Positions 3,705 through 26,229 of a DNA stretch of 64,000 nucleotides are shown one piece after another. Both the position numbers and the translations under genes were made by a program. The first letter of the stretch is position 1. Every line of letters starts with the position of its first letter. A model generated the notes under the pieces. That model was given only the letters and a program-made list of their open reading frames with translations, ran no database searches and had not been told where the DNA came from. Source of the stretch: a virus; UHGV virus genome UHGV-1550212, one strand, 5' to 3'.

Positions 3705-6700
3705 TTAGCCACGAATCAAGTCAACCAAGCGTTGCTGTTCAGGAGTCAATGAAGACTTTCCGCTGCCATCAATGTTTTCGTTAACGAAACCGACTGGCTG
3801 CTTAGTCGAATATGACTTGATTGCAGCCCAGTTACGTGAACGATAGAATGCTGCGACATCTGACTCATTTACGAAAGTGCGAACTGCTGCCTGAGTAGCA
3901 ATCAATGACTTCTGTTCAGGAGTCAAGCTTTCATAAATGTACTTGTATGCTGTTGGCATATGCTTCAGATACAATGGTGTATGGTCAATTGGCTGCAGGT
4001 TCTCATCCAAGACTGCTACACCAGCAGCATCATAGCGAGTTGCAAGCTGCTTTGTTTGACGACGCAATGCAGCAATTTCATGCTTGATGCTTGTCAAGCA
4101 TTCATCAGTTGCTTGTGCGCCAAGATATGTGCGAAGCATATCAGACAGCATCTTCTGATTTGCATCGGTCAAATCACCTGCAACTTCAATGCCAGTCAGC
4201 TGGCCATCTTTGCTGATGACTACAGAAATTGTAGAACCGTCGCGTTCAACTGTGCGGAAGTCAAAGTCATCGTATGACTTATCCTTAAGGACAGCTTCAC
4301 GAATATTGTCATCTACGCCTTCATTGACCATGCTCATGCATTCCTCAACATCTACGTCAAGTCCAAGCTCTTCTGCAGTTTCAGCAATCTTTTCTGCAAG
4401 CTGAGCTTTATTCTCAACTTTGTCAAGGTCTGCTGCATCTGATACAGCATCGACAAGTTCATCTGCCTGTGCACGAGTAATCGTTGAAGCATCAACAAGG
4501 CCATCAATGATTTGCTCTACATCTGCAGGTGTCGGCTTGTTGTCTTCTGCTGCTTCATTGATAAACTTGGCAGTCTTTGGCTTGTAGCTAAGCTTGCCCT
4601 CATTGACCATCTCATCCTGCAATTGTGCAGCGATGTATGCAATTAGCAATGACTTGTTGGCTTCAAGTTCATCGACTGCTTCAGCAGACTTTTGAGCTTT
4701 GATGAGTTCATCGTAAGCTGCTGCAACTTTGTCATCCATCGTAGACTTGTCAGGGTCAATGTTTTTGATGCATGTCTTGACAATATCATCCTGATAGAAC
4801 TTGTCAATGATTGATTTGTCTGTGTCAGAGTATGTTGCATATAACTTGTCTGCGACAATTGATTCATTGACAATCTTGCCTGGCTCAGATGCAGGAACAA
4901 GAGTCCACTTACCATCAACTTCTGCAACAATGCCTGAAGTCGATTCGCCATAAGTGACTGTTAGACGAGTGCCTGCTTCATTGTTGTCAATTGTGTTGAC
5001 GACTGCTTCGAATTCATTACCATCAGCGTCATAGATTTTGATGCTGTCACCGACAGCAGCTTCATCTACTGGTGCTTCGAAGAACTCTTTGACAAAGTTC
5101 TGAACATCAACGGGCAGACTGTCATATGGCTGTGATGCATAGTACTCTGAGTCAGCATCAAGGTAATTCTTTGAAAGCAGCCAAGCTTTTCGAGTAGCAA
5201 CATCTGCAGCATTCCAAGCATCGACTGACTCATCGCAGTCATCGACAAGTGCAAGATACTCATGGTCTTTCTTGTCATCAAAACGAAGAGTAATCTTTTG
5301 TTCGGGCTTGCCAGCAGGCCAAACTTCGACTTCAATTTCTGTAGTGCCTGCAACATTTTTGACTGTGCCTACAACAATCTTGTCGCCTTTGTTGATGCCA
5401 TTAGACATGTCGTATGGTGCTTCAATAGATTCATCTGTCGACTGAGCTCGAATTGCTGCAGCAATAGCATTACGAGATTCATTGTCGAACATCTCCCATG
5501 TAGCATTCGCAGCATCTTCTACACCAATCTTGTCTTTGCCAACCTGCTCAATCAACTGATTGCGGTCAGCTACTGAAGCATTGTACCACCAGTCTGCAGC
5601 AGTGTCAGATGCTTCATTGACAAATGCATTGAGCAATGCAGTCTGAACGTTATCAGGCAACTTGTCAAAGTCAACAAGCTCTACGTCATCTGCAATATTT
5701 GCTTGCTTTGCTGTTGCTTTACGGCCATCTGCATCAGACTTATTCCAGTCATCAATGAATGCCTGTTCAGCAGCAGATTCATCAAGCGCTTTGACAGTTT
5801 CATATCGACCGTCATACAGCATGTACTTATCGCCTTCTTTGATGGCTACAGACTCCTTGCCATTGTACTTGAATGACACTTTGTCACCATTGAAGCCGGT
5901 CAATTCAGCTGTGATTTTATCGCCATTCTTGTCATACACTTCAACTGTCTGCTCTTCATCAATGTTCAAGTGCTTCTTGAGTGCATCTACAAGTTCTTTG
6001 CCAAGAGCGTCTTCATTGTCATGGGCTTGCTGGAAGCAATCTTCATCTGACTTGTCAGGCTGAACAGCTTTCAATGCTGTTGCCCGATTAAGCATTGACA
6101 TCGTGCCCCAGATTGACATGAAGCTTTTGCCCTCATTGTCTTGTGCTTCGGCTTCGTCAATTGCATCAATGTCTTTCTCAAGCATTGCATGATGAGCAAT
6201 GTCGATGCCAGACCATTTCGTCTTTGCATTATATGGCAAACCAATATGCTTCGACAAAATTGACTGACGTTGGTCATCTGTGAATGAATCCCAAGCTTCG
6301 CCAAGTGTTGCATGCTTTGCTTCATCAGCAGCAAATTCTGTTTCAATCTTAAGTTTGTGGTCCTTGTCAATCAGTTGCCACTTGGCATTTGGACGATAGA
6401 ACTCAGACAATGACAGCTTGTCAAGAATGACTTTGCGTTCGTCATCTGACAATTCGTCCCACTTGTTGTCAGCAGATTCATCGATGTTGACGAGTTCTTT
6501 CTCAATGAGATTCTTGTCAAGCATTGCATCAATGATTGGCTGCTGGGCTTCTGCTGGAATGTCTTTGAACGACTTAATTGCAATGACAGCGTCTTTGTCA
6601 TCAACTTTAGCAGCTTCAACAATTTCTGTCTTCACTTCATCAGTCAAAGCGCCCCAAGCAGCATCGAGATAATCAAAGTTGAGAGCTTCATCACATTCAA

Positions 6701-7820
6701 CAATGCCATACTGCTTTGCAATGTCATTGTGCTTGTCAAGATTGCTGTTGAGTTCAGCTTCAATTGCTGCTTTGATGTCATCAATTGACTTATCTTCAAC
6801 TTCAAGCTCAAGAGCTTTTGCAAGTTCAGTCAATGCTGCATCATCAAGCTTGCTAATGTCATAAGGCTTAGCATCTTCATTTGTGAAGTCAATGCCAAGC
6901 AAAGACATTGCTTGCTTCTTGTTTTCTTCTGAGAGTGCATCGAATGCAGTTGCAAGACCGACATCGGTGTAGTCGCACCCAACTTCGTCAAGTAATGCTT
7001 CGACTTTCTGGATGTTTTCTACGCCAACTTCGTTAGCATCAGCATTGTTGTATGCCTCAACAAAACGTGATTGGTTTGTCATGGTAGTGAAATCTTCTAT
7101 TGATTCGTTTATGAGTTGCTGTTTGAGTGCATCCAATGATGCTGAGCCAATCAATGCATCAGGGAATAGCTTCTGCAACATACCTGTACGTGCAAGCTCA
7201 ATCAATTGGAGCATCAATGAGTTTGGCGAGTCTTCGTCATCTACAGATTCACAAATGAGAGTGTCTTTTGATTCATTAACTGAACCGACAAGATTGAACT
7301 CTGCATTCGAAAAGCCTGGCTGTGCAACCAAATCAAATGTCACGATTTTGAGAAGCTGAACTCTGCCAGTAGTTGGATTGACTACGCCAAGGGCGCGACT
7401 TGAAATGAACAATGGCGAACCTGCTGTAACAATTGCCCATGCAATGCGACCTGCAGGCGTATCAAGAATTGTAATGTAGCCTTCAAAACGTCGTTTTTCA
7501 GGATTCCATTCAATACTGTCCAATCTGTGGCTTACGTTTCCATAACGTACAGTACGTCGCTTAACATGTTCAAGTTCGCCAAGAAGTCGCTTTGCTTTAA
7601 TTGCAGGTTGCAATGCCTGTACTTGAGCAAAGTAATTCTCAAAGTCATACGTGCGCCCATTTTCGTTTTTCTGGTCCATGTATGCATACACGCCAAAAAG
7701 ACGACCAAGTGCGCCGCTTGGCACATGAGAATCTTCTGCTTCAACTACAAACTGACAATCTGCGCGGCTTTCAAGCATAAGTGAGGCTTCCCTGCCTTTG
7801 TACTTATATGACTTTGCCAT
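3705..7820 (-). CDS. Prohead core protease-like N-terminal domain (T4 gp21-like, ~210 aa) fused to ~1160-aa highly acidic low-complexity region (scaffold/internal-protein-like)
   Basis: First ATG at 7820 (MAKSYKYK). N-terminus ...NGRTYDFENYF...LLGELEHV...GYITILDTPAGRIA...FISSRALG matches prohead protease motifs as recalled; remainder is Asp/Glu-rich throughout. Confidence 0.6.
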   Translation of the reverse strand: MAKSYKYKGREASLMLESRADCQFVVEAEDSHVPSGALGRLFGVYAYMDQKNENGRTYDFENYFAQVQALQPAIKAKRLLGELEHVKRRTVRYGNVSHRLDSIEWNPEKRRFEGYITILDTPAGRIAWAIVTAGSPLFISSRALGVVNPTTGRVQLLKIVTFDLVAQPGFSNAEFNLVGSVNESKDTLICESVDDEDSPNSLMLQLIELARTGMLQKLFPDALIGSASLDALKQQLINESIEDFTTMTNQSRFVEAYNNADANEVGVENIQKVEALLDEVGCDYTDVGLATAFDALSEENKKQAMSLLGIDFTNEDAKPYDISKLDDAALTELAKALELEVEDKSIDDIKAAIEAELNSNLDKHNDIAKQYGIVECDEALNFDYLDAAWGALTDEVKTEIVEAAKVDDKDAVIAIKSFKDIPAEAQQPIIDAMLDKNLIEKELVNIDESADNKWDELSDDERKVILDKLSLSEFYRPNAKWQLIDKDHKLKIETEFAADEAKHATLGEAWDSFTDDQRQSILSKHIGLPYNAKTKWSGIDIAHHAMLEKDIDAIDEAEAQDNEGKSFMSIWGTMSMLNRATALKAVQPDKSDEDCFQQAHDNEDALGKELVDALKKHLNIDEEQTVEVYDKNGDKITAELTGFNGDKVSFKYNGKESVAIKEGDKYMLYDGRYETVKALDESAAEQAFIDDWNKSDADGRKATAKQANIADDVELVDFDKLPDNVQTALLNAFVNEASDTAADWWYNASVADRNQLIEQVGKDKIGVEDAANATWEMFDNESRNAIAAAIRAQSTDESIEAPYDMSNGINKGDKIVVGTVKNVAGTTEIEVEVWPAGKPEQKITLRFDDKKDHEYLALVDDCDESVDAWNAADVATRKAWLLSKNYLDADSEYYASQPYDSLPVDVQNFVKEFFEAPVDEAAVGDSIKIYDADGNEFEAVVNTIDNNEAGTRLTVTYGESTSGIVAEVDGKWTLVPASEPGKIVNESIVADKLYATYSDTDKSIIDKFYQDDIVKTCIKNIDPDKSTMDDKVAAAYDELIKAQKSAEAVDELEANKSLLIAYIAAQLQDEMVNEGKLSYKPKTAKFINEAAEDNKPTPADVEQIIDGLVDASTITRAQADELVDAVSDAADLDKVENKAQLAEKIAETAEELGLDVDVEECMSMVNEGVDDNIREAVLKDKSYDDFDFRTVERDGSTISVVISKDGQLTGIEVAGDLTDANQKMLSDMLRTYLGAQATDECLTSIKHEIAALRRQTKQLATRYDAAGVAVLDENLQPIDHTPLYLKHMPTAYKYIYESLTPEQKSLIATQAAVRTFVNESDVAAFYRSRNWAAIKSYSTKQPVGFVNENIDGSGKSSLTPEQQRLVDLIRG

Positions 7821-7898
7821 ATTTGAATTGTGTTTGAAAGTTTGCAAATTTTTGTTGTTATTGATTATATATGCAAGGCAGACTTGTGTGTTGAAAAA

Positions 7899-7927
7899 TT
7901 GCAAAATTTCAGTTATGTGTACATAAC
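7899..7927. promoter_or_regulatory. Divergent intergenic region with TTGCAA box and inverted repeat GTTATGT-GT-ACATAAC
   Basis: Between minus gene start 7820 and plus RuvC-like start 7954; 7-bp arms around a TGTACA core at 7912-7927. Confidence 0.3.
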
Positions 7928-8788: not shown

Positions 8789-9049
8789 ATGGTGCACATT
8801 GATGGCTTACATGCAGCAGGTCAATATGCATATCTTGGCGTATCATTGTCACAGACAGGCGTCATATACCATGCAAAGTGGACATCTGGTTCTGGTACAG
8901 GACCTCAAGGCCCATTTAAGCCAGGCACAATTATCAGATTTGGCTTGCACAATTCAGTGTCATCAACTACAACGCCTCGTGCAATGCAAGCAATAGAAGT
9001 TGACGCAAAGCAATTTGGGCAAAATTATGCTATATTGTTTCAGCTGTAG
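8789..9049 (+). CDS. Hypothetical protein (86 aa)
   Basis: First in-frame ATG of track ORF 8741..9049 (GTG start); downstream of RuvC-like gene on same strand, followed by hairpin at 9094. Confidence 0.3.
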   Translation: MVHIDGLHAAGQYAYLGVSLSQTGVIYHAKWTSGSGTGPQGPFKPGTIIRFGLHNSVSSTTTPRAMQAIEVDAKQFGQNYAILFQL

Positions 9050-9093
9050 TATTGATTGCAATGGTATGCACTCGTTAACATAAGCATCAAAAA

Positions 9094-9120
9094 ACTCCGA
9101 CAGAATTGTTCTGTCGGAGT
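9094..9120. terminator. Bidirectional intrinsic terminator between convergent genes
   Basis: ACTCCGACAGAA-TTG-TTCTGTCGGAGT, 12-bp perfect stem, A-run upstream and T-rich downstream. Confidence 0.65.
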
Positions 9121-9167
9121 TTGCTGTTGTAAACAGCTGTCTTAATGTTTTGCAATCTATAGCAAAT

Positions 9168-10961
9168 TCAATTTTGTGTTGCAACGTCATCAGTCTTGTT
9201 ATCAACTGGCTCATCGTCGACATGTGTATCAACATCAATGCCAGAAGCTGCAGCAAGTGAAACATCATTAGCGACGCCTTGTTGTTCAAGTTGTTGTTGA
9301 GCTTGCTTTGTTTGAATTGCGACAAGTCTTGCAGCTTCCATTGCAAGCTTAAGATTCTCTTGAAGTTCGATATCAAGCTGTTCAGCATTAGCTTGCATGT
9401 CTTCTTTGCTTAAGCCAAGATACTTGTTGATAAGCCAATTGCTTGAGAAGAATGGGCGTTCAGTATCAGACATGTTAAGTGAACGAACAAGTGAACTGCG
9501 AATGTCTTCGATTGTATGAATACGCTTCTGAAGCAATGTGAGCTCCATTTGCGTCTGGAAATGATTGTATCTATTGAATTTGAGTTTTAGCGCATTCAAA
9601 ACTTCATTGTCGCCAATGTAGTTATTGTTTTTGATGCACATCAAAACATACACAGGCTTCAATATGATTGCAATGCCAAATCTACGCATCAAAGCTGAAA
9701 TAAAGATTGCAAAACGACGCTCATCACGCTGAATTGACTCTTCAGAAACATTCCACATGCCACCGCCATCATCGAATCTGCTTAGAGGCAGCTTTGACAG
9801 ACGTTGTAAGTTATTGCGGAAATATGTGACTGCTGAAGTATCAGATAAGTCAGGCATGCCTGTGCCAATTGTTTGAATGTTGGGTTTGCCTGCATTAGTG
9901 TCAGCCATCCAAAATTCGCTATTGAAAGGCACAGATGCTTCGCCATTAACTTGGAGTTCGCCGGTTTGATTGTCGAATTCAATTTTTTCGTGGTACTTAT
10001 TCATTGCTTTACGCAATGTTTCCTGTGCAGCAGCTTTCAGTTTACCGCCAGTAGGAATTGTGATAAGTGAACGAAAACGAGAAGCTGTCGTAGCATATGC
10101 AATGCGACTTCGCTCCAAAATCCTGAGCAAGTTGAATGCACGAACAAGACGCTCAAAATATGACATAGACCCAACCATGTCATCGTTCCACTGCAAATAT
10201 GCTACTTGCGAATCAAGCAAGTTGATTTTTTCTGAGTTGTTAGACACAAATGCTGGTGCTTTGACATCAAACATTGTATGTGTCTTGAACATATCTTGTT
10301 GAGACTTATCATACTGCCAGAAGAACATTTCACCCTTCTTCATAGGCGTCAATGCAAATGCATTCAACTTTTTGATGCCAACAATATCAGTCGGCTCATC
10401 TGCATTATCAAACACAATCTCATAGCCAAGTCTGCCTCGTACAAGATATTCACGCAACAATGCTCTAACATCTTGTTTGCGAGGTTCAGAGTTCAACCCA
10501 TTGAATGCATACATCAAATAGACTTGCTTGAATGCATCCATAAAGTCATCTTTGATTGTCTGCTTTGCTGTGTCGTCTATCTCAAGTTTATCGATGTCAC
10601 AAAAATCAGGCTCGCAAAAGAAATTACTATCGGAATTGAACACGATGCACTCATCAATCATGCGGTCAAGAATGTCGTCGAGTTCCGGTTCTGCACTTAA
10701 GATGTCATATTTTTTGGCTCGAAGATAACTTGTCAATCCAAAAAGATTCTTTTTAGGTGACTCTTTCTGATTGAACACGTCATCAGTAGACAACACAACA
10801 ACTTCTTGGTCATTGATGTTATGCTCACCTGTATATGCTGCTTTCTCCAAATCTGCATCAGACCCAGACTTGTGCACATTCAATTGCTGCAATGGACTGT
10901 CTTTCGGAATTGAGCGTAATGCATCAGTTCCCAGATATGTTCGTTTGGTCTTTTTAGCCAT
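9168..10961 (-). CDS. Portal-like protein (T4 gp20-like), 597 aa
   Basis: ATG at 10961; ...SEFWMADTNAGKP...YFRNNLQRLSKLPLSRFDD resembles portal core motif (VPLSRI region) as recalled. Confidence 0.55.
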   Translation of the reverse strand: MAKKTKRTYLGTDALRSIPKDSPLQQLNVHKSGSDADLEKAAYTGEHNINDQEVVVLSTDDVFNQKESPKKNLFGLTSYLRAKKYDILSAEPELDDILDRMIDECIVFNSDSNFFCEPDFCDIDKLEIDDTAKQTIKDDFMDAFKQVYLMYAFNGLNSEPRKQDVRALLREYLVRGRLGYEIVFDNADEPTDIVGIKKLNAFALTPMKKGEMFFWQYDKSQQDMFKTHTMFDVKAPAFVSNNSEKINLLDSQVAYLQWNDDMVGSMSYFERLVRAFNLLRILERSRIAYATTASRFRSLITIPTGGKLKAAAQETLRKAMNKYHEKIEFDNQTGELQVNGEASVPFNSEFWMADTNAGKPNIQTIGTGMPDLSDTSAVTYFRNNLQRLSKLPLSRFDDGGGMWNVSEESIQRDERRFAIFISALMRRFGIAIILKPVYVLMCIKNNNYIGDNEVLNALKLKFNRYNHFQTQMELTLLQKRIHTIEDIRSSLVRSLNMSDTERPFFSSNWLINKYLGLSKEDMQANAEQLDIELQENLKLAMEAARLVAIQTKQAQQQLEQQGVANDVSLAAASGIDVDTHVDDEPVDNKTDDVATQN

Positions 10962-10981
10962 TTTTGTATTGCTTTGAATAT

Positions 10982-12220
10982 CTATACACGTCTTGTCAAT
11001 TTGACATGACCGCAGTCATCTGCAAGCAGTTTAACATGACCGCAGTCATCTGCAAGCAGTTTAACATGACCGCAGTCATAAACTTTGACGAAGCCTGCAT
11101 CAATCATAGTTTGCTCATCATGATTGCAGTCAAGCACATGTGTATGAGTTTTCATATTGTACCAATGCAAGCCGATGTAAAAGTCAGTCTTGTGATATGC
11201 GTCAGTATATAATCGTGGGTCATCTATAGACAAATCAAGTTCGACGCAGTCAGCAGTCTGCAGTTGTTCTGTGTCAGTTAGCAATGATTTGACAAGCTTG
11301 ACTACAGCATCAAATGACATCCAATCAAATACAGTGATGCATCTATAGCCATGTTGCATAGCTGTGCAACATTTGTCAAAATGCGTAGTTGATGCAATTG
11401 GCTTGTTGACTGTAGAACGACCAGTAGCAAAATCAAATGCAAATGTGCTGTTATGCGTAAATGACGGATTGACATCAATTAGCAAATTGTCATATCGCAA
11501 ATCAAATGCGTAGCAATCTACGTCATGTTCATATTCAAAATCAACACCAGTATGCTCAAGTAGCATATCATGTAACAAGACGTTTGGCTTTGTAATGATT
11601 TTGCCATTTGCAAGTCTGCACTTCTGAGTTAAACAATGCCAAGGCACGCCATATCGTTCAAGTGTAGTGTTGCTAATCTTCTGCAAATTGCCAAAACCGC
11701 TGCCATAGCGTAATTGCTTTGTGACTGTTTGCTGTGCAACATTACCATTAGCATGACCAAACTTGTTGATGTTTGTTTGCTTGCGCTTAGCATTTGCAGT
11801 TGCAATATCAACAGATTCAAGTGACTCAAGAAATTTTGACATGTCGCCAAGCCCATTGCCATATAGTTGACGTTTAGTGTCAACAACTTTTGTCATGTTC
11901 CAGTGCTTGTAGCCATATCGAGCTTCTTTTGTCGCAAATGCTTTGTCATAGTTGCCAAAGCCTGCATGACCATATCGTTCAACTTTTGTTGCAGCAATTT
12001 TGTCTGAGACTTCTTTAAGCTGATGTTTGTATTCAACGCCAAACTTGCGCAAATTTGATATGCGAATGTTGAACACTCGTTTGACTTTTGTATGCGTAGA
12101 GCCTTTGTCAAGCTTTGCATATGGAATTTGTGCAAGTGCAGCGTCTCTTTCATCTTCAAGCTCTCTTATTCGAGCTTCAAGTGCATCACCAGCCAAAACT
12201 TCTATGCGTATAGTCTGCAT
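10982..12220 (-). CDS. Repeat/nuclease-like protein: coiled-coil N-terminus, 6-7 degenerate TK-x-(E/A)RYG repeats, C-terminal LLIDVNP..THNS domain; candidate free-standing homing endonuclease
   Basis: 412 aa; GDALEARIRELEDERD, repeated ...TKVERYG...TKEARYG...RQLYG...TLERYG; paralog of 16405..17604; C-terminal 30 aa is a triplicated decapeptide. Confidence 0.6.
   Translation of the reverse strand: MQTIRIEVLAGDALEARIRELEDERDAALAQIPYAKLDKGSTHTKVKRVFNIRISNLRKFGVEYKHQLKEVSDKIAATKVERYGHAGFGNYDKAFATKEARYGYKHWNMTKVVDTKRQLYGNGLGDMSKFLESLESVDIATANAKRKQTNINKFGHANGNVAQQTVTKQLRYGSGFGNLQKISNTTLERYGVPWHCLTQKCRLANGKIITKPNVLLHDMLLEHTGVDFEYEHDVDCYAFDLRYDNLLIDVNPSFTHNSTFAFDFATGRSTVNKPIASTTHFDKCCTAMQHGYRCITVFDWMSFDAVVKLVKSLLTDTEQLQTADCVELDLSIDDPRLYTDAYHKTDFYIGLHWYNMKTHTHVLDCNHDEQTMIDAGFVKVYDCGHVKLLADDCGHVKLLADDCGHVKLTRRV
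11004..11079 (-). repeat. Perfect 30-bp tandem repeat x2.5 at the 3' end of CDS 10982..12220
   Basis: Unit ACATGACCGCAGTCATCTGCAAGCAGTTTA; encodes DDCGHVKLLA x3; each unit carries inverted repeat ATGAC-CGCA-GTCAT. Confidence 0.9.
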
Positions 12221-12279
12221 TGCAATTTGTTGTCAAATCGCGAACTTCATATGTTGTCATTGACTCATTCATAGTCGCA

Positions 12280-13026
12280 TCAAATCATTCTGTTATCACT
12301 AACTGCAAAGTTGATATTGTTGTCTTTCAGATATTGCATGTATCGCTGAAAAATCTGGTCAGCTGTCAGTTTTTCATAATGATTCGATGGAATGAAGATT
12401 GCTTTAGACCAATCTTCATATTTGAACTCAATCAAGCCTGTCATTCGTGGTGGCAAATATGAACGAAATGCGAATGCTGCGCCATACTTTGTGACAAGTG
12501 AGCCAACTTGCTGCCATGTCATATGCACTGCAGTTTGTTCAGAACGATACATCTCGCCTTTGTATTTAGACGCAAATGCTTTGAAGACAGTCTCAATGAC
12601 AAGAAAACGAACTTCAAGAGGCAAGTGGTGCAAGTTTACACCCATGCTGACTACTGAGCCGTCCTTTGCAATATAATACGACAATGACAAAATTAACGGC
12701 GCGCAGTCGTACCAATCAAGTACATCTGCATGCTTTGGATTGTCATACACAAACATGTACAATTTCCCAGGTTCCATGTACTTTCTGCGAATCTGCACAT
12801 CAGGATTCGTAGCATATGATTTGAACCATGCAGCAGCTTCTCTACCACCGTTTGGCATTTTGTACCATGGATTGCTTCGAATTTCTTTGCCAAGGTCATA
12901 TTGACCGGACTTTACCAAACGATTGAATAATCGTTGTGCTGCAGTCAATATTGAACGTCCTACTGACTTCGCTTTGTCAATAAAAGACGTTTTTGCTTGT
13001 GTATCTAATGAATTAAACTTGGGCAT
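12280..13026 (-). CDS. Hypothetical protein (248 aa)
   Basis: Track ORF 12280..13041 trimmed to ATG (MPKFNSL). Confidence 0.6.
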   Translation of the reverse strand: MPKFNSLDTQAKTSFIDKAKSVGRSILTAAQRLFNRLVKSGQYDLGKEIRSNPWYKMPNGGREAAAWFKSYATNPDVQIRRKYMEPGKLYMFVYDNPKHADVLDWYDCAPLILSLSYYIAKDGSVVSMGVNLHHLPLEVRFLVIETVFKAFASKYKGEMYRSEQTAVHMTWQQVGSLVTKYGAAFAFRSYLPPRMTGLIEFKYEDWSKAIFIPSNHYEKLTADQIFQRYMQYLKDNNINFAVSDNRMI

Positions 13027-13044
13027 ATCTTTATGCAGCAATTA

Positions 13045-13191
13045 TTATCGTTTCGGCTTTGTGACTACATGCCAAGCATTGCATTCTTGACACCACACAG
13101 CTCTCTTTGCTTGTTTAGCGTTTAGCACTGCTTGCTTAGCTACTTCTGCATTTGCAGCAATCTTGTCATAGCATTTCTTTGAGCAACTCAT
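13045..13191 (-). CDS. Small Cys-rich protein (48 aa)
   Basis: Internal ATG of ORF 13045..13323 overlapping upstream stop as ATGA; MSCSKKCYDK...CQECNAWH. Confidence 0.4.
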   Translation of the reverse strand: MSCSKKCYDKIAANAEVAKQAVLNAKQAKRAVWCQECNAWHVVTKPKR

Positions 13192-13628
13192 TTGAAGAAT
13201 CGTTCTGTAATGATTTTGAACTTGATATTTTGTTGTTTGCAGTATGCAATGGTGGCATTCCACTTCGCAACATTTTTGCGATATGTTTCTTTCGCATAAT
13301 TTGATGCTGACCGACTTGGACATTGTGTTTCATGCCACGGTTTCACTTCAACGATATATGTAGAATCTGCAGTTTTGAACAAAAAGTCAGGCCAATATGT
13401 ATGAGTTACGCCATCAAGCTCATATACAATTGGCAGAGTCTCAGATGACCAAGCAAGCACTTTTGAACTCATGTCACAAAGCTTGCAAAATCTGAATTCA
13501 AGTGAACTGCGGTATATGATTGTCTTGTCTGTCGCATCTTTGCCTTTGTACTTATCTGGGTTCATACATCTGTAGTAGCCTTGCTTATACGGTCCAGATT
13601 TGTTTGGCTTAAGTTGCTTAATGTTCAT
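13188..13628 (-). CDS. PD-(D/E)xK-type nuclease-like protein
   Basis: ...YWPDFLFKTADSTYIVEVKPWHE (D...E-V-K motif); 146 aa. Confidence 0.5.
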   Translation of the reverse strand: MNIKQLKPNKSGPYKQGYYRCMNPDKYKGKDATDKTIIYRSSLEFRFCKLCDMSSKVLAWSSETLPIVYELDGVTHTYWPDFLFKTADSTYIVEVKPWHETQCPSRSASNYAKETYRKNVAKWNATIAYCKQQNIKFKIITERFFK

Positions 13629-13633
13629 TGCAG

Positions 13634-13879
13634 TCACTCATTGTCAGGTTTGACGTCTTTGCAGCCAAACTTATGAACAGCATATTCAAGACCAAGTCGT
13701 TGCAATTCTGCAAATGTCTTGTCTTGTATGTATTCCTTTGGAAATCTGCCATGCCATTTGCCTATTGTAGGCGCACATTCTGAACACATTCGAGGCTTAT
13801 TTTGTAAACGTGCAGACCAATAATAGCCAAGCGCAGTATTTTCAATTGCGCCACACTTTTCACATACAAATAAAGGCAT
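13634..13879 (-). CDS. Zinc-ribbon protein (81 aa)
   Basis: CEKC...CSEC paired Cys motifs. Confidence 0.5.
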   Translation of the reverse strand: MPLFVCEKCGAIENTALGYYWSARLQNKPRMCSECAPTIGKWHGRFPKEYIQDKTFAELQRLGLEYAVHKFGCKDVKPDNE

Positions 13880-13883
13880 GATG

Positions 13884-15263
13884 TCAACTGTTTACTTCCC
13901 ACATGTTATCAATATCAAGTACAGGCCACATTCTACGTTGAAGCTCAACTGTTTGTGACAGTTTGCCTGACTTTGTGTAGTTCCATTTCAATGCAGTGCT
14001 TATGTATTTGCCGCTCAATCGCAAGTTCTTTGCATTCTGAGATACGCTTGGCTGTCGCTTTGGCGAATCTGTTGCTTTCTCATCAGGTTTTGTTGGCTCT
14101 TCAAGCTTGTTCTTGATTGACCATATCTCAACGTTGAGTGTTTTGAATGCATATAGCTGGTTCAGTGTTCGTTGTAATGTGCACGACAAAATTACTCTAT
14201 CAAGCATGCCTTGAGACCAATCATACATTGCAGCAGCTTCATAAAAGTGCTCATGCACATTTGAGTGGTCTGGGTCTCGTTTAGCAAGTTGAATTGCAGT
14301 CTGCTCTGTGTAATCTGCAAAAGTGTCCCAAATCTTATCTGTAGATTCTTGTTTGATGACAGGCTGTGATGTTTGCGCGTATATGCTTTGTTCACCTAAA
14401 TTGTGCTGCATTGACACAACATTAACCGCTGATGGTCTGCGCATAGATGTTGAATTGTATGTCATGCCATATTTTGTGAATCTTGACATCCAATTTTCAC
14501 CATTGACATTGTTATTCAAGATGAGCTTTTGCGGCTTTGGTAATTCTTTGCCGTCAATGTTATCAATTGTTATTGTGTCATCAAGCGGAGTCTCTTCCAT
14601 TTCTGCAAACACATCAACAATCGTCAAACGATACCAAGGGTCAATGAATGCTTTGACAACTTTGTTTTTACCAAGCCACATATGTCGTAATACATGACGT
14701 TTAATGAAGCTTAGATATGTTTCATTGCATTGCAGCCATGTCATTTTGTCATCTGTGCCATCAATGTTTGTGACAAGTCCAAGACCTGTATCTTCGCAAA
14801 TCTTCTTTATGACATCAATGCTTGTCATGTCATCAAATGATTGAACCATTGTTTGCTTCAATGCATCATCGACAAACAAATGTGCAGAAATTCGAATGTT
14901 GCCATTGTCTTGTTCTGCATTATCAATCAAAAAGTCGGCTTTGATGACCTTAAATTCTGTGTCAGCAGTGTTGCCAATGTAAAGCGTTGCGATGTCATGC
15001 ACAAGCGGAAAGTCATTGAACATAAAGTTCGCATTGTCATTAAATGACAACTCAAACTGCGGCAAAAAATCTTTGCCATATGACAGCTCAAAGTACTGAA
15101 TTGACCCAAAGGGCACATTCGTGTTGCACACATACACAAGTGGCACAAGTTTACCTGCAGACTTCAGCACAGATTTTGTCGAGTCTTCATTGACAGGGTC
15201 ATAGTTGACCATTATGTCTCGCACTTCATCAATCAAAGTGCCCTTCAAAACTTCTTTGAGCAT
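13884..15263 (-). CDS. Hypothetical protein, probable virion/morphogenesis component (459 aa)
   Basis: Long ORF, ATG start, in structural gene run; no motif recognised. Confidence 0.6.
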   Translation of the reverse strand: MLKEVLKGTLIDEVRDIMVNYDPVNEDSTKSVLKSAGKLVPLVYVCNTNVPFGSIQYFELSYGKDFLPQFELSFNDNANFMFNDFPLVHDIATLYIGNTADTEFKVIKADFLIDNAEQDNGNIRISAHLFVDDALKQTMVQSFDDMTSIDVIKKICEDTGLGLVTNIDGTDDKMTWLQCNETYLSFIKRHVLRHMWLGKNKVVKAFIDPWYRLTIVDVFAEMEETPLDDTITIDNIDGKELPKPQKLILNNNVNGENWMSRFTKYGMTYNSTSMRRPSAVNVVSMQHNLGEQSIYAQTSQPVIKQESTDKIWDTFADYTEQTAIQLAKRDPDHSNVHEHFYEAAAMYDWSQGMLDRVILSCTLQRTLNQLYAFKTLNVEIWSIKNKLEEPTKPDEKATDSPKRQPSVSQNAKNLRLSGKYISTALKWNYTKSGKLSQTVELQRRMWPVLDIDNMWEVNS

Positions 15264-15264
15264 G

Positions 15265-15729
15265 TCAGAAGATGATTTTGCCTGCTTGCTGATTGATAAT
15301 TACATGTGATGTGCTTCGCCTGTTTGCGACAATTGATGCATTAGATGCTTGTGCTTCAACTTTGTCTGTTGTAGTTTTATTGACTGTCTGTGGAACTGTT
15401 TTTGCATCTGCATTCTGCTTGTATGTCAGCACTGTTATGGCATCATATACAGAAGTCTCAGGCACAAGCAAGATGTCATTAGGCTCAAAATCAAATGGGG
15501 ACTTGCGATTGTTGAATGTCATCAATTGCTCAATGCCGCGTTTATGCGCGTATACGTACTCAGATAAGCCAATAGGATTTGCTGCATACACAGGATGCAC
15601 AAGAGCAACACCGCCGACACCGACAGTGTCAAATTGTCTTGATTGCGTAGCTGTTATGGGTTCATCTGAGTGCAATGTAACATTGTCAAGCAATGGCATT
15701 GCAACATCATCATAATTATCTGTGACCAT
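15265..15729 (-). CDS. Hypothetical protein (154 aa)
   Basis: ATG start; start overlaps downstream gene stop. Confidence 0.6.
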   Translation of the reverse strand: MVTDNYDDVAMPLLDNVTLHSDEPITATQSRQFDTVGVGGVALVHPVYAANPIGLSEYVYAHKRGIEQLMTFNNRKSPFDFEPNDILLVPETSVYDAITVLTYKQNADAKTVPQTVNKTTTDKVEAQASNASIVANRRSTSHVIINQQAGKIIF

Positions 15730-15781
15730 GGTAGATGTGGTTTATGCTTATGAGATTGAGACATGAAATTGAACATCAATG

Positions 15782-16405
15782 TTATGCATTGGCAATTTCA
15801 GATGGCATTCTGAACTTGATGTCATTATACACAAATGTCAATGTGAATGTCATCACGTTCTGGTCTACACGAGTTTTGTCATATGTGAGTTCTGAAATTG
15901 CAGAAAACACGACATCAATGAAGTCGATGCCAAACAATGGTTTCTTTGCACCGCCATATGTCGCTACAAATCTGCAGGGCTGAAAGTAGATAGTTTCGCG
16001 TTTATCGTTAGCGTATCTGAACAAACTCTCTAAGCAACAAAAATAGCTTAAACCACCATTCGTCAATCTGCATGTCACCTGGATTCGCTTATCAAGTGCT
16101 TGATGAATTGTCTTGCTGCCCTTATGAAACTGTGTAATTGACTTCTTCATGCCACTGTCATCAAGAACTTTATTGACATTCTGAGTAACAATTGGCATCG
16201 ATATGCCCATCAATGACACAGACTGAATTGAATCATGCAACAAGTCATTGATGTCATAAATGATTTGTGTTGGTTGTTGCACAAACACTTTATTGTAAGT
16301 ATCAGCAATATCTTGCGGAATCAAATCAATTGGCAAGTCAAAGCGAAACTGGTCTGACCGTGTATCGAGAATGAGCATATTTTTGATAATTTGTTTATGT
16401 ACCAT
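15782..16405 (-). CDS. Hypothetical protein (207 aa)
   Basis: ATG at 16405 overlaps stop of upstream gene (TAATG). Confidence 0.6.
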   Translation of the reverse strand: MVHKQIIKNMLILDTRSDQFRFDLPIDLIPQDIADTYNKVFVQQPTQIIYDINDLLHDSIQSVSLMGISMPIVTQNVNKVLDDSGMKKSITQFHKGSKTIHQALDKRIQVTCRLTNGGLSYFCCLESLFRYANDKRETIYFQPCRFVATYGGAKKPLFGIDFIDVVFSAISELTYDKTRVDQNVMTFTLTFVYNDIKFRMPSEIANA

Positions 16406-17604
16406 TAACTGTCATACGACCAGTGACCACAGTCATACACTGGCACAAATCCAGTGTCAAGCATTTCTTGCTCAATAAAGCCATCATCAAGCAAATGTTC
16501 ACCTGACTTCGTATTGACCCAATGCTTCTTAATTGTGCATTCATCAACCACAAAGGGATTAAGTGCATTGTCAGTGCAATCAATGAACACATTATTCAAA
16601 TGCGCGTCAATGACATGCAGCACAATTTCTGGGTTGTGCCAATCAAATATCATAAGTGGCGTGTAGCCACATACAATTGCAAGTTGTTGCTTCCACCAAT
16701 GATAGTTTGGCTGTTTTGCTTCTGCGGCATTTCGTTTAAAGCCATACACGCTATTATGAGTATGCGTCGGGTTAACGTCAATTAGCAGATTGCCATAATA
16801 CAGGTCATATGATGTTATGCCAACATCATGTTCAAACTCAAAATGCACACCAAGATGTTCTTCAATGTATGATTGCCACCATCTGTTTGGCGCAGATATG
16901 ATTTGCCCATTTGCTTGCATACATTTATTTGTCATGCAAAACCATGGCACACCGTAACGTTCCATACAGGTTTTTGAAATTGCAGCAAGCCATTCATCTT
17001 TGTCTCTATGCGGCCATGCATAACCATAACGCAGACGACATGTTTGTTGAGCTTTAGCAACGATTGGCGCTAAACGTTCACCGTATATTTCACGTTTAGT
17101 TGCGATGGCTTTGCGTGGATTAGTCCATCCAGCATCACCCCATCGCTCAAGCTTCGTTTGCTGAGATTTTTCAACAATCAGTTCAAGATTCTCACCATAT
17201 TTTTGACGACGAGTTTGCATTGCTGCAACATAATCTGTAATGCATCTATGGCCATACAAACGTTCTTTTGTCGCACTATGTGCTTTATCGCCATATGAAC
17301 TGCCGTAGCGTGCAACTTTAGTGGCAATTGTTTGCTTGATGTTGCCTGCTTTAGAACCATAACGAGCTTCTTTAGTTGCTACGCATTTTTGTTTGACTTC
17401 TGCTCTGTTCCAATTATGCTCAACGCCATGTTTACGAAGATGGCCAATTTTCATGTTGTACACGTTTTTGATATGACCATGAGATGTCTTACGTGGTGCA
17501 TATCGTACAAATGGTGTTTCTGCAAGCAACTTATCTCGTTCAGCTTCAAGCTCTTTAATTCGAGCTTCAAGAGCTTCACCAGTCAAATGCTCTACATGTT
17601 TCAT
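16405..17604 (-). CDS. Repeat/nuclease-like protein, paralog of 10982..12220 (399 aa)
   Basis: GEALEARIKELEAERD; repeats ...TKEARYG...TKVARYG...KERLYG...REIYG...RLRYG...MERYG; C-terminus ...NLLIDVNPTHTHNS. Confidence 0.6.
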   Translation of the reverse strand: MKHVEHLTGEALEARIKELEAERDKLLAETPFVRYAPRKTSHGHIKNVYNMKIGHLRKHGVEHNWNRAEVKQKCVATKEARYGSKAGNIKQTIATKVARYGSSYGDKAHSATKERLYGHRCITDYVAAMQTRRQKYGENLELIVEKSQQTKLERWGDAGWTNPRKAIATKREIYGERLAPIVAKAQQTCRLRYGYAWPHRDKDEWLAAISKTCMERYGVPWFCMTNKCMQANGQIISAPNRWWQSYIEEHLGVHFEFEHDVGITSYDLYYGNLLIDVNPTHTHNSVYGFKRNAAEAKQPNYHWWKQQLAIVCGYTPLMIFDWHNPEIVLHVIDAHLNNVFIDCTDNALNPFVVDECTIKKHWVNTKSGEHLLDDGFIEQEMLDTGFVPVYDCGHWSYDS

Positions 17605-18101
17605 TCGTGTTTGCCAGTTTGAAATAACGAATCAATTGGGATGTGAATACCAGGTTTGGATTGAATGTTCCATCCGCGCGCCAAACCATTAAGTACGCAG
17701 CTCGTAAGGTAAGAAAACGCGTTTTGAGTTACTGTTGGGTCAAACATTTGCCACTTTGACGCCAAAATTAACATGGCTTCTGCTGCGACATCTGCTTGTA
17801 AGTCTTTGTCCCTGTAGTATAAACGTCTCTGCACATGTTTGATAAGCAACTCAAACATGTGTATAAGTTTATTTGACAGCTGTCCAGATACTTTGCATGC
17901 GCATATTTCTGCACAAAGTTCTTTGCTGTTGATGTAATAGTTTGATGGCTGACCTCGCTTCTTTGTGTTTGCAGCTTCTTCACGAAGTTGGTCTTCAAGT
18001 TGTGTCAACATGTCATCATCTGACACGTATTGAATATGCTTGTCTTCTGGTAGTTTAGATTCTATTGGTTGTAAGTTTTGCAGTGGCATAGCAGTGAGCA
18101 T
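17601..18101 (-). CDS. Late-transcription sigma factor-like protein (T4 gp55-like)
   Basis: ...SNYYINSKELCAEICACK...NAFSYLTSCVLNGLARGW resembles the gp55 pattern as recalled; start chosen at ATG 18101, downstream of promoter motif (alternatives 18140, 18089). Confidence 0.4.
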   Translation of the reverse strand: MLTAMPLQNLQPIESKLPEDKHIQYVSDDDMLTQLEDQLREEAANTKKRGQPSNYYINSKELCAEICACKVSGQLSNKLIHMFELLIKHVQRRLYYRDKDLQADVAAEAMLILASKWQMFDPTVTQNAFSYLTSCVLNGLARGWNIQSKPGIHIPIDSLFQTGKHE

Positions 18102-18117
18102 TAAAATTCCTATATAA

Positions 18118-18146
18118 ATTGTACAACGCTTTGTGCACATTTGCAA
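18118..18146 (-). promoter_or_regulatory. Sigma70-like promoter (sense: TTGCAA-N17-TACAAT)
   Basis: Direct reading; upstream of sigma-like gene. Confidence 0.45.
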
Positions 18147-18155
18147 TCATAAAAA

Positions 18156-18179
18156 AGCTCAGCCAATTACGGCTGAGCT
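18156..18179 (-). terminator. Intrinsic terminator after 18206..19495
   Basis: AGCTCAGCC-AATTAC-GGCTGAGCT; A5 on plus = U-tract on sense. Confidence 0.55.
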
Positions 18180-18205
18180 TTCATTGAGATGCGTCTTGTC
18201 TGCCA

Positions 18206-21137: not shown

Positions 21138-22430
21138 CTACAACAATGACGGCACTCGTTGAGTTTCAAGTGGGTCGCTGACATTGATGCCTGTGTATGC
21201 AACAAGTCGTTGTATTGGGCCAAGTACGAGTTTTTCGAACATGAGTCGTTTGTTCATTGGCGGCACATCTGGCATATACTTCGGTGTCGGCATTTCGCCT
21301 GGTGCAAAGCCAAATGCATCGCAATATTGACGAGAGCCAATTGGTATATTTGACAAATCTGACTTTGCTCTGTCAACAAAGTAGTAGAACACTCGACCGC
21401 CTTCAATCAATGGGTATCGTGTTTCCAATCCATGTGCTTTGACAAGACAGTTATGCCAACAACATGCTCTATATTGAGGCAGTACACCTTTTGCTAACTG
21501 CCATTCACCATCATAGCTTAGCACATAGTCATGATACTTGTTTGCATTGACATATGCACAAAGTTTCTCCAAGTCTTGCTCGGCTTCAAAGCGTTTCCAT
21601 AATTTCTGTATGAGCTTTGGATATGTCGCAGAAGTTAATTCGCCTCTGAACATTTTCTTGAATGCATAATCAAGCATTTGTCTAACAAGCATTGACGAGC
21701 CTGTTTGAATAAGTTCGATGCCTTTGCCTTGAATGTGCTCAGTAGGGTCTTCGAATACTCGACCATCTACATATATTTGAGCCTTTAAGTACTTTTTCTT
21801 TTGGGCAAATAATGCAGTGTCAGAAATCGTTTCGAGGTCAAATAGCAAAATTGAATTGCCGTGGCGTTTTGCGAGGTCTGCTGCATATGCACCATTGAAT
21901 AACTCTTCCATACGATATTTGAATATCGCAAGAATCAAGTCATACCAATTTTTGCCTATGTAGCCAATTGATTTGACAGTTGGCTCAAAGTGAATGTACA
22001 AAGAGTCTGTATCAATGTACAACACTTTGTCTTCATAAGGCTCTTGCTTTGGCGACACAGACAAATCAAAATTGCCCTTCAATTGTGGGTCATTACGCAG
22101 CTTTTCATGCAATTCATAATCACACCACCACTTATTGTTGAGATAGTCATTTGCTACTCGTTCACCAAAGTGAATGAAGTTGCGGCCTTCAGCAGTAATT
22201 GATTCTGCAACTGCCATATTAAAGAAGTGATAGAAACGATTGCTTGTAGCGCCATATATTGAGTTTCGACAACATTTTGCTGAGACTTGCAGTCCTGCAT
22301 GCTTTAGTGATTCTTGCATTGCAAAATCTCTCAATTCAAATAGACGTTCAGTAGACAACTGGCTTAAATCACCAGTCAAATCTACTCCATCTATTTCAAT
22401 TTTTGACATATCTATCTGAGCTTCTGCCAT
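21138..22430 (-). CDS. DNA polymerase family B, C-terminal fragment (motifs B and C)
   Basis: ...CCRNSIYGATS (KxxxNSxYG) and ...VLYIDTDSLYIHF (YxDTDS); 430 aa; own promoter upstream. Confidence 0.85.
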   Translation of the reverse strand: MAEAQIDMSKIEIDGVDLTGDLSQLSTERLFELRDFAMQESLKHAGLQVSAKCCRNSIYGATSNRFYHFFNMAVAESITAEGRNFIHFGERVANDYLNNKWWCDYELHEKLRNDPQLKGNFDLSVSPKQEPYEDKVLYIDTDSLYIHFEPTVKSIGYIGKNWYDLILAIFKYRMEELFNGAYAADLAKRHGNSILLFDLETISDTALFAQKKKYLKAQIYVDGRVFEDPTEHIQGKGIELIQTGSSMLVRQMLDYAFKKMFRGELTSATYPKLIQKLWKRFEAEQDLEKLCAYVNANKYHDYVLSYDGEWQLAKGVLPQYRACCWHNCLVKAHGLETRYPLIEGGRVFYYFVDRAKSDLSNIPIGSRQYCDAFGFAPGEMPTPKYMPDVPPMNKRLMFEKLVLGPIQRLVAYTGINVSDPLETQRVPSLL

Positions 22431-24723: not shown

Positions 24724-26229
24724 TTACAATTTGATTGCGCCTCTACGAGCAAGCTCTTCTTCAATCAATCGAACATGATTGTTAGCATACCAAAATTGCA
24801 ATTTTTTGTGATAATTGCGAACGTTGCCAAGCTGTTCTTGAGTTTCTTTATACATTGAAGGCTCTCTGTTGTCATACAGACAATTGTTGACTGACACAAA
24901 GTAATTTGGGTCTGCTTTGTAATGCTCAATTTCATCAGGATTTGTTAAACGTCTAATAAAGTTGTCTGGTGAAATATTCGCCGAGCGCATACTTGACGGA
25001 TACAATGAGTTTGCGTCAACACAGACAACCATACGAGCCCAATGGTTAAATGGTTGCTTAACAAAGCCGCCCTCAAATGAATGTACTACATTCTCTGGGC
25101 CACCTTGAGCACATACAACTTTGCCGCCATATTTGTTGTATAAGTATGTCATCATGACGCCCTCAGATTGCTTAACTGGTCCTTGGCAGTGATTCATGTC
25201 AATATTTGTCATATTTGACAATGACATCACATTTGATATCAAGTCAGTTTTTGCAGCAATCATTGCATTGACCATAGTATCGACAGCATTGTATGCAATG
25301 AATGTGCATGGATGATACAAATACAGCTCTTTAAGTGTGCAATCATAGGGCAACTTACCTACGCCGAACATACGATGTGCAATGTAGTCAAGTCGCAATG
25401 ATTCCTTTTGCCACACTGAATAGTCGTATGTGTCCATGAGCTGCATGTAGTCATCAATGTACTTGTGATATGGCATACCATTGCCCCAGACAGTTCTGCC
25501 AACTGGAGATGCCAATGCTAAATCAATATTGTGCATTGCGCATCGATTTTTGACATAGATGTTATCGAAGTCATTGATGTTCCAGCCTGTCAATGCAGGA
25601 ATGTTTTTGAAGAGCTTAGTCACCCAAAAATGCAACAATTCATGCTCATTTGCATGTTGAAAAATTTTGACAGTTGGATGTTCTTTCAAATACGCAGCAA
25701 AGCAATGTTGACCCATATACTCTTGAATGATGCCATTGACAAACTCAAATGCATCATCCAATGTTGGGTTTTGTTTGCCGCAGCTTTTGCGCAAATCATC
25801 ATCATTCAACAAGTCAACAGTAGTCTGAATGACACAATTGCATTGTTCATCGCATGTACTTATTGCATTAATGGGCATTTCAGCTTTGTCAGGCTTTGGA
25901 AAGCCATTGCCAATTTCAGTCTCAATATCGTAAAAGTACAACTTTGGTCTACGATAAGCAAACAATTCAGCTTTGTCAGCTTCAGGCAATTCAAATAAGA
26001 ATTGCAGCAAGTCAAATTGATTGAATCGTTTTGCTGTGACTCGAGTCACTGGCAATTTACGCCAATCTTGAATATCTGCATATTGAGGCTCTACGTGGTC
26101 TGATATTTGCCACACTGGAAATTGATATGGCTGTTCACAGACTGGGTATGTTTTGATGTCAATGCCACCTTGCTCATTAACATATGAGACTTCAATGCCA
26201 TGTGACAAATATGCTACGTCAACAATCAT
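24724..26229 (-). CDS. DNA polymerase family B, N-terminal fragment (3'-5' exonuclease + motif A)
   Basis: FYDIETE (Exo I), NINDFD (Exo II), YNAVD (Exo III), VDANSLYPS (motif A); 501 aa. Confidence 0.85.
   Translation of the reverse strand: MIVDVAYLSHGIEVSYVNEQGGIDIKTYPVCEQPYQFPVWQISDHVEPQYADIQDWRKLPVTRVTAKRFNQFDLLQFLFELPEADKAELFAYRRPKLYFYDIETEIGNGFPKPDKAEMPINAISTCDEQCNCVIQTTVDLLNDDDLRKSCGKQNPTLDDAFEFVNGIIQEYMGQHCFAAYLKEHPTVKIFQHANEHELLHFWVTKLFKNIPALTGWNINDFDNIYVKNRCAMHNIDLALASPVGRTVWGNGMPYHKYIDDYMQLMDTYDYSVWQKESLRLDYIAHRMFGVGKLPYDCTLKELYLYHPCTFIAYNAVDTMVNAMIAAKTDLISNVMSLSNMTNIDMNHCQGPVKQSEGVMMTYLYNKYGGKVVCAQGGPENVVHSFEGGFVKQPFNHWARMVVCVDANSLYPSSMRSANISPDNFIRRLTNPDEIEHYKADPNYFVSVNNCLYDNREPSMYKETQEQLGNVRNYHKKLQFWYANNHVRLIEEELARRGAIKL

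Follow-up and report, generated by a model that had tools for sequence, protein, structure and literature searches.

Two small cysteine-rich genes at the junctions of a predicted T4-type head-completion nuclease in a T4-related virus genome

We analysed a 64,000-nucleotide stretch of UHGV virus genome UHGV-1550212 (the window) and found that the genes at and next to positions 13045-13879 very probably represent a standard gp4/gp2 head-completion pair with two independent accessory insertions at the junctions of gp4. The original prediction had read this interval as a compact three-gene unit that might be mobile or DNA-processing. The interval is not a mobile element, and the apparent three-gene "cassette" arose by coincidence, from two small genes inserted at junctions between core genes. 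We refer to the 81-aa protein as ORF-A, to the 146-aa nuclease as ORF-B or gp4, and to the 48-aa protein as ORF-C (Table 1). Homology, catalytic residues, synteny, the insertion pattern and purifying selection come from the data presented here; the nuclease activity and the head-completion role come from the T4 literature.

Table 1. Genes in and around the interval, ordered by position in the window
Feature	Coordinates	Strand	Support
T4-type portal protein	9168..10961	minus	PHROG 213 portal, 5e-54
DUF7487/homing-endonuclease-like gene between gp2 and portal	10982..12220	minus	Pfam DUF7487; PHROG homing-endonuclease families
gp2-type DNA end protector, 248 aa from ATG at 13026	12280..13026	minus	PHROG 429, 4e-29
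ORF-C, 48-aa four-cysteine mini-protein (CxxxC...CxxC)	13045..13191	minus	Clade-restricted ORFan
ORF-B, predicted gp4-type head-completion nuclease, 146 aa from ATG	13188..13628	minus	PHROG 218; PF08722
ORF-A, 81-aa predicted zinc-ribbon protein (CxxC...CxxC)	13634..13879	minus	phrog_11861 profile; family alignment
459-aa virion-module (hub-like) protein	13884..15263	minus	phrog_35886, 2e-34
Second DUF7487 homing-endonuclease-like ORF	16405..17604		

All three predicted open reading frames (ORFs) are present on the minus strand, and they do lie between virion genes, with the 459-aa protein upstream and gp2 and the portal gene downstream. The cysteine patterns also agree with those first described, being C6-x2-C9...C32-x2-C35 in ORF-A (CxxC-22-CxxC) and C3-x3-C7...C34-x2-C37 in ORF-C (CxxxC-26-CxxC). 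That two cysteine-rich ORFs flank one gene may point to a functional tie with gp4 or gp2. The ATGA-coupled starts that had been proposed for this run were borne out at one junction only. The gp4 stop and the ORF-C start share ATGA at 13188-13191, and translation of ORF-C is probably coupled to gp4 through this overlap, whereas 5 nt separate the ORF-A stop (13634-13636) from the gp4 ATG downstream of it, and a GTGA overlap arises there only if an alternative GTG start at 13637, giving a 149-aa protein, is the one used. The stop of the 459-aa gene is 4 nt upstream of the ORF-A start. A 92-aa alternative ORF in the ORF-C frame (13045..13323) was dropped, since it runs into gp4 and has no conserved counterpart in the close relative L003.

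The central protein matched the Pfam TnsA-like_N endonuclease domain PF08722 at 9.4e-18 (65 bits, cutoff 26.5), confirming the PD-(D/E)xK call, and PHROG 218 "head closure" at 1.5e-36, with residues 14-145 aligned to profile positions 3-141 of 148. By tblastn it matched 2447 phage records, 2431 of them with at least 80% of the query covered; these included T4-like phages of Escherichia, Synechococcus, Klebsiella, Vibrio and Acinetobacter, among others. Among the top 30 matches listed, the annotation was gp4, head completion or head closure, and the highest identity to cultured phages was 44%, to cyanophages. We aligned nine gp4 sequences, including metagenomic relatives, cyanophage S-ShM2 gp4 and T4 gp4. 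Residues E44, D81, E94 and K96 were invariant and form the E...D...ExK set of PD-(D/E)xK nucleases. The pN/pS ratio of gp4 was 0.04-0.09 (pairwise Nei-Gojobori). Direct sequence matches to Tn7 TnsA and T7 endonuclease I were weak (PDB entries 2pfj and 30jv at E about 0.2-0.3; Pfam PF05367 at 0.004). The T4 protein also goes by the names gp50 and gp65.

These matches agree with earlier descriptions of the family. The gp4 proteins were predicted to be PD-(D/E)XK nucleases whose closest folds are TnsA and T7 endonuclease I (PMC1189080), and the T4-like core genome includes gp2 and gp4 (PMC2993671). Iyer et al. described group-2 jumbo phages as characterised by the pairing of a TnsA-like "head completion protein" with a "DNA end protector" (PMC7824862), and that paper, citing Benler et al. 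2020, gives the DNase activity of T4 gp4 as required for head-tail joining. We identify the 146-aa protein as the T4 gp4 orthologue and as a predicted T4-type head-completion nuclease, its activity and role being transferred from T4. The nuclease is thus known in kind, and the protein here is a new, divergent member. The nuclease lies in a deeply conserved block, and the central protein matches a known virion assembly factor (PHROG 218 "head closure"), the outcome that the original prediction had named as its own refutation. The suggestion of DNA processing survives in a narrow sense, in that gp4-type nucleases act on packaged DNA in head completion (PMC7824862, citing Benler et al. 2020).

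The surrounding genes form a conserved morphogenesis block. The gp2 products of relatives carry PF26869 (Phage_T4_gp2), and gp2 of the window matched T4 gene 2 by tblastn at 1e-13; its central part is mosaic among close relatives, with 73% identity to L003 and 99% to L008. The portal proteins of relatives carry PF07230 (Portal_T4). The 459-aa protein, encoded directly upstream of gp4 in all relatives lacking ORF-A, can be aligned over 97% of its length, at 25% identity, with the N-terminal portion of an 822-aa protein of Chryseobacterium phage MA9V-2, which carries CHAP and Phage_lysozyme domains at its C-terminus. Among cultured phages, the nearest homologues of the 459-aa protein come from jumbo phages of Chryseobacterium, Tenacibaculum, Flavobacterium and Sphingomonas, and sequence and profile searches of the PDB gave no match. 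The lysozyme fusion of the MA9V-2 homologue suggests that it is probably a baseplate or tail-hub component. In MA9V-2 the order is the 822-aa protein, a "head completion protein", a 268-aa hypothetical protein, a "DNA end protector" and a capsid assembly gene. The block of hub-like protein, gp4, gp2 and portal is retained in the relatives L010, L012, L014 and L015, and in MA9V-2 with one extra gene. A megablast of positions 12000-16500 against 50,697 phage records returned no match and hence no close cultured relative.

Comparison across relatives separated the nuclease from its small neighbours. The order 459-aa protein, ORF-A, gp4, ORF-C, gp2 is shared by four close genomes (the window, L003, L008 and L026), with a nucleotide identity of roughly 91-96% as measured for L003, a 175.5-kb IMG/VR contig. 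Intermediate relatives (L010/L011, L012/L013, L014/L015 and L016) were picked through gp4 homologues of 57-72% identity. There, gp4 starts 1-9 nt after the stop of the hub-like gene and is followed by gp2 either directly or past a non-coding spacer of 30-134 nt. Searching the L010-L016 loci by tblastn with ORF-A and ORF-C found nothing, and the same loci yielded gp4, gp2, the 459-aa protein and the portal. In L016, whose gp4 is 72% and gp2 88% identical to those of the window, the gp4 stop and the gp2 start overlap as ATGA (...TTCTTCAAATGA...), and the same junction sequence starts ORF-C in the window. The absence of both ORFs from the intermediate relatives, together with this shared junction, indicates that ORF-A and ORF-C are separate recent insertions, confined to the clade of the window, at the two junctions of gp4. 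The nuclease holds the same position in 10/10 related loci, always beside gp2 or other morphogenesis genes; variation is confined to the DUF7487 genes and the small ORFs on either side of gp4. Presence and absence therefore contradict a mobile three-gene unit: the nuclease is a core gene, kept where the small ORFs are absent.

Taken together, the interval very probably belongs to the late morphogenesis operon of a T4-related myovirus of roughly 175 kb, whose nearest cultured relatives are phages of Bacteroidota. By orthology with T4, gp4 would be a small non-specific PD-(D/E)xK DNase (TnsA-N/T7 endonuclease I-like) that acts after packaging, and its action on the packaged DNA would make filled heads competent to join tails. 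The product of gp2, encoded just downstream, would cap the packaged DNA ends alongside gp4. ORF-A and ORF-C would be small accessory genes, independently inserted and outside the conserved head-completion machine, and, to judge by how the genes are ordered and spaced, transcribed along with the late genes. Both proteins are probably zinc-binding, as their cysteine arrangement suggests, and their most likely role is that of dispensable accessories that bind nucleic acid or protein and take no part in head completion.

We weighed this reading against the alternative that the zinc-binding mini-proteins serve this lineage as cofactors or regulators of head completion, so that the four genes form one functional unit. 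The small proteins might then restrain the gp4 DNase while DNA is still being packaged, or join gp2 in binding DNA ends or the portal. The insertions flank gp4 exactly, ORF-C is ATGA-coupled to it, and both small ORFs are under purifying selection within the clade, all of which would fit such a unit. However, the relatives that lack both ORFs encode gp4 proteins 57-72% and gp2 proteins 49-88% identical to those of the window, and because genomes with such similar gp4 and gp2 do without the small ORFs, head completion does not need them. The gp4/gp2 junction also hosts unrelated insertions elsewhere, such as the 268-aa gene of MA9V-2, and ORF-A carries a 1-nt deletion (frameshift) in L008, which may reflect true inactivation or a mistake in the assembly. 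We consider the cofactor explanation unlikely.

The family to which ORF-A belongs bears on the same question. ORF-A matched the uncharacterised phrog_11861 at 7.4e-11, and 46 phage records, mostly of Vibrio, Klebsiella and Salmonella siphoviruses, contain weak homologues (30-52% identity). An alignment of 20 sequences defined an N-terminal core of ~55 aa (MPLFVCExCGAIENTA..YW..CSEC.P..GKWHGRFPKE) in which C6, C9, C32, C35, W42, H43 and F46 are invariant, as are the motifs AIENT and GKWHGRF. A HMMER search of all 1.84 billion cluster representatives (clusters at 50% identity) gave 661 clusters at E<=1e-10 and, at the looser E<=1e-3, 1168; almost all are 50-190 aa long. The ten longest members had no informative fused domain; they showed basic or low-complexity tails and, in one case, a tandem duplication. 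The AlphaFold2 (AF2) models of ORF-A (pLDDT 82) and ORF-C place beta-hairpins at the cysteine knuckles, and the cysteine spacing fits a zinc ribbon; Pfam zinc-ribbon matches for both proteins all fell below threshold. Foldseek comparison of the ORF-A model with the PDB gave no match at E<1, comparison with BFVD returned only uncharacterised viral members of the family, and a profile search of PDB sequences gave insignificant matches only (bL31, E 0.19).

Family members occur in small-gene runs near HAD_SAK_2 and terminase genes, between the neck and tail-completion genes of Raoultella phage RP180, in a small-gene island of a Klebsiella phage and in the tail module of Vibrio phage 1.017.O. In Yersinia phage fHe-Yen8-01 the homologue is annotated as a "particle associated protein" within a run of such proteins; a literature search on this phage found no paper. 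Further contexts were accessory clusters and a contig with ABC-transporter neighbours that is possibly cellular. The presence of homologues among neck, tail or late genes in unrelated phages would suit a virion-related role better than a generic accessory one. The RP180 and 1.017.O locations and the particle-associated annotation count in favour of the cofactor explanation, yet the family is mostly found in contexts without a gp4-like nuclease: in those examined elsewhere, no gene was annotated as, or matched, a gp4-type or TnsA-like nuclease. The phrog_11861 family thus appears promiscuous, landing in many genomic contexts with no constant neighbours. That its members are virion-associated or late-acting proteins (packaged with DNA ends or acting on them, for example) or counter-defence proteins, with ORF-A and ORF-C recruited to the gp4/gp2 step, seems to us a doubtful proposition.

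ORF-C has a narrower distribution. Among 5.8 billion proteins it was found as a single 90% cluster, its own, and tblastn against phages gave no match at E<=1. Its AF2 model (pLDDT 72) comprises two short helices and a beta-hairpin and found no fold match in the PDB; Pfam and NCBIfam matches were below threshold. It is conserved in L003, L008 and L026, and appears to be a young, clade-restricted ORFan inserted at the gp4/gp2 junction.

The small ORFs could instead be non-genic, one or both being non-coding spacers that are open by accident. At 48 and 81 aa they are short, ORF-C has no homologue outside the clade, the ORF-A frame is broken in L008, and neither ORF is preceded by a Shine-Dalgarno-like sequence. 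This last feature carries little weight against them, since its lack is general for the genes of the window. The substitution pattern, by contrast, is that of coding sequence, with pN/pS of 0.14 for ORF-A and 0.06-0.17 for ORF-C (pairwise Nei-Gojobori) and binomial P values against neutrality of 8e-5 to 9e-4 in the informative pairs; a fourth pair, ORF-C of the window versus L003, has only 5 differences (P = 0.059). Variable sites concentrate at the third codon position (21/30 in ORF-A; 9/13 in ORF-C, with none at position 2). The ORF-C frame is the only one open in all three genomes checked, and an independent gene caller called both small ORFs in L008 and L026. For ORF-A, the 661 family clusters at E<=1e-10 with invariant Cys, Trp and His residues argue in the same direction. 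These results indicate that both small ORFs are real genes under purifying selection, and we regard a non-genic origin as very unlikely.

Searches for traces of mobility in the interval were negative. The TnsA comparison recovered the N-terminal domain only; the protein ends at 146 aa, its neighbours are phage morphogenesis genes, and it scored 20.5 bits against the NCBIfam TnsA_like cutoff of 110. No recognised homing-endonuclease catalytic family was matched in the three ORFs by Pfam or PHROG, paralogues of the three were not found within the window, and flanking repeats were limited to short matches of a kind often due to chance. GC content is 0.38-0.43 throughout, with no composition shift. 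PADLOC defence and anti-defence models matched none of seven proteins at E<=0.01, and Rfam gave no match in 10500-18500 at E<=0.1. Promoter-like sites numbered 6 against 11.2 expected from shuffling, terminator counts were likewise not above the shuffled expectation, and no copy of the T4 late promoter TATAAATA occurs anywhere in the window.

The mobile-type elements nearby are the two DUF7487 ORFs, which lie outside 13045-13879. The product of the one between gp2 and the portal matched DUF7487 at 2.4e-5, its 24.8 bits falling short of the gathering score of 27. This gene is absent from L010, L012 and L014 and is replaced in L003 by a different gene of 372 aa; both DUF7487 genes are missing in intermediate relatives. 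A mobile nuclease cassette in the interval itself, be it what remains of a TnsA-type transposon or a free-standing homing endonuclease partnered by zinc-finger DNA-binding proteins, would accord with the TnsA-like N-terminal domain of gp4, with the DUF7487 genes close by and with a weak gp4/TnsA-like domain in the L003 372-aa gene, but is extremely unlikely given that the nuclease is constant in position in every relative and its flanks vary (the opposite of the pattern of a mobile nuclease), that it is orthologous to a core gene matched in 2447 phage records, that the TnsA C-terminal domain, TnsB and other transposition partners are absent, that GIY-YIG, HNH and LAGLIDADG matches are lacking, and that there are no terminal repeats or duplications above chance-like short matches and no GC anomaly.

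Relabelling these genes as the gp4/gp2 pair of a divergent T4-related phage averts a false "mobile element" annotation. The locus also provides a clean natural case of small genes entering core-gene junctions, with relatives that show the states before and after, and it marks the gp4/gp2 junction as an insertion hotspot. The zinc-ribbon family involved, with at least 1168 clusters at 50% identity, recurs in the late modules of unrelated phages.

Among known systems, T4 is the closest counterpart. The gp4 proteins are of similar size (146 aa here and 150 aa in T4), each a single domain, share the E...D...ExK catalytic set and are encoded next to gp2 among morphogenesis genes; they differ in sequence, T4 gp4 being about 33-35% identical to the protein here. 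For gp2, the partner lies downstream and the order is gp4 then gp2 in both, with a PHROG 429 profile match of 4e-29. In the clade of the window, however, gp2 is not contiguous with gp4, while gene 4 of T4 directly adjoins gene 2: a 48-aa ORF separates the two here and an 81-aa ORF precedes gp4, and T4 and the intermediate relatives lack both. Tn7 TnsA and T7 endonuclease I have the PD-(D/E)xK catalytic core in common with gp4, but gp4 lacks the TnsA C-terminal domain, the TnsB/TnsC partners and transposon ends, and its context is not that of a Holliday-junction resolvase. ORF-A has the core of the phrog_11861 family, including the four cysteines, W42, H43, F46 and GKWHGRF; its C-terminal tail is clade-specific, and its position beside a gp4-type nuclease sets it apart from the other family contexts examined. 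Unlike free-standing homing endonucleases, ORF-A and ORF-C carry no nuclease or homing motifs. Their placement resembles the periphery of T4-like genomes, where clade-specific genes sit exactly at core-gene junctions, with DUF7487 homing-endonuclease-like genes at the neighbouring junctions.

Short direct repeats crowd the spacer between gp4, which encodes the head-completion nuclease, and gp2, the DNA end protector gene, in the intermediate relatives L010, L012 and L014 (Table), and in the Chryseobacterium phage MA9V-2 the same position is occupied by a 268-aa gene. The gp4–gp2 junction looks like a hotspot for insertion and duplication. Among close relatives of the window, gp2 itself is uneven: the window copy (12280..13026) is 99% identical to that of L008 and just 73% identical to that of L003. 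These differences are clustered in the central part of the gene, and the adjacent genes are 95–99% identical. Such a mosaic gp2 fits a recombination or gene-conversion tract beside a variable slot for homing endonuclease genes (HEGs).

Two DUF7487/HEG-like genes lie in the window, each placed where two core genes meet. They are paralogues sharing ~36% identity, and neither is present in the intermediate relatives L010, L012 and L014. The 3′ end of the 412-aa gene (10982..11100) encodes about three tandem copies of the 10-aa repeat DCGHVKLLAD. Since its homologue in L008 is 392 aa long, the copy number of this repeat appears to differ between the two phages. In L003, the slot between gp2 and the portal gene is filled by another gene, whose C-terminus matched PF08722 weakly (9e-5) and was 28% identical by tblastn to the gp4-type nuclease of the window. 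Given this gp4/TnsA-like domain and the presence of a similar gene in L014 and L015, HEG-like genes of this phage group seem to reuse gp4-like nuclease domains.

Features of the window and of related contigs
Feature	Sequence	Position	Strand	Remarks
gp4 3′ end in three copies (AATTCTTTAGCATATGA)	L012	6450..6530		gp4–gp2 spacer
gp4 3′ end in duplicate, plus CTCTAAACTTTGATTTTA doublet	L014	6450..6630		gp4–gp2 spacer
TCTGGCAAAA repeated	L010	6470..6600		gp4–gp2 spacer
DUF7487/homing-endonuclease-like gene, 412 aa	Window	10982..12220	-	Junction gp2/portal
DUF7487/homing-endonuclease-like gene, 399 aa	Window	16405..17604	-	Junction gp55-like sigma factor/207-aa protein
372-aa gene, different from the HEG-like gene in this slot of the window	L003	7343..8461		gp2/portal slot; weak C-terminal gp4/TnsA-like nuclease domain
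372-aa gene similar to that of L003	L014	about 9456..10574		After portal; also in L015
Family-B DNA polymerase, split in two ORFs (501 aa + 430 aa)	Window	21138..22430 and 24724..26229	-	
Very large ORF, 1399 aa	Window	3705..7904	-	Prohead maturation protease domain at the N-terminus (PHROG 207, 4e-32)
HAD_SAK_2/ORF-A family locus	L004	4333..4806		
HAD_SAK_2/ORF-A family locus	L006	4513..5004		

ORF-A, the 81-aa zinc-ribbon gene, is frameshifted in L008 by a 1-nt deletion at about 5112 (codons 39–40). L008 is a Logan assembly of run ERR13912692; the frameshift may reflect a true pseudogene or an assembly error. In two unrelated contigs, a HAD_SAK_2 (PF18143) gene lies one or two genes upstream of an ORF-A family member, which could be a recurring association or merely phage kinship. 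Elsewhere in the window, ~2.3 kb with other ORFs separates the two parts of the family-B DNA polymerase. In relatives, the counterparts of the very large ORF yield products of 1360–1621 aa, with faint Peptidase_S77/S80 matches.

The window encodes a gp55-like late sigma factor (17601..18146), yet the T4 late-promoter consensus TATAAATA was not found anywhere in its 64 kb. Inspection by eye of gene starts across 9000..17700 likewise found no Shine-Dalgarno-like motif before any of them. Together with the affinities of the conserved 459-aa protein encoded upstream of gp4, which lie with phages of Chryseobacterium, Tenacibaculum and Flavobacterium, the absence of both signals points to a Bacteroidota host.
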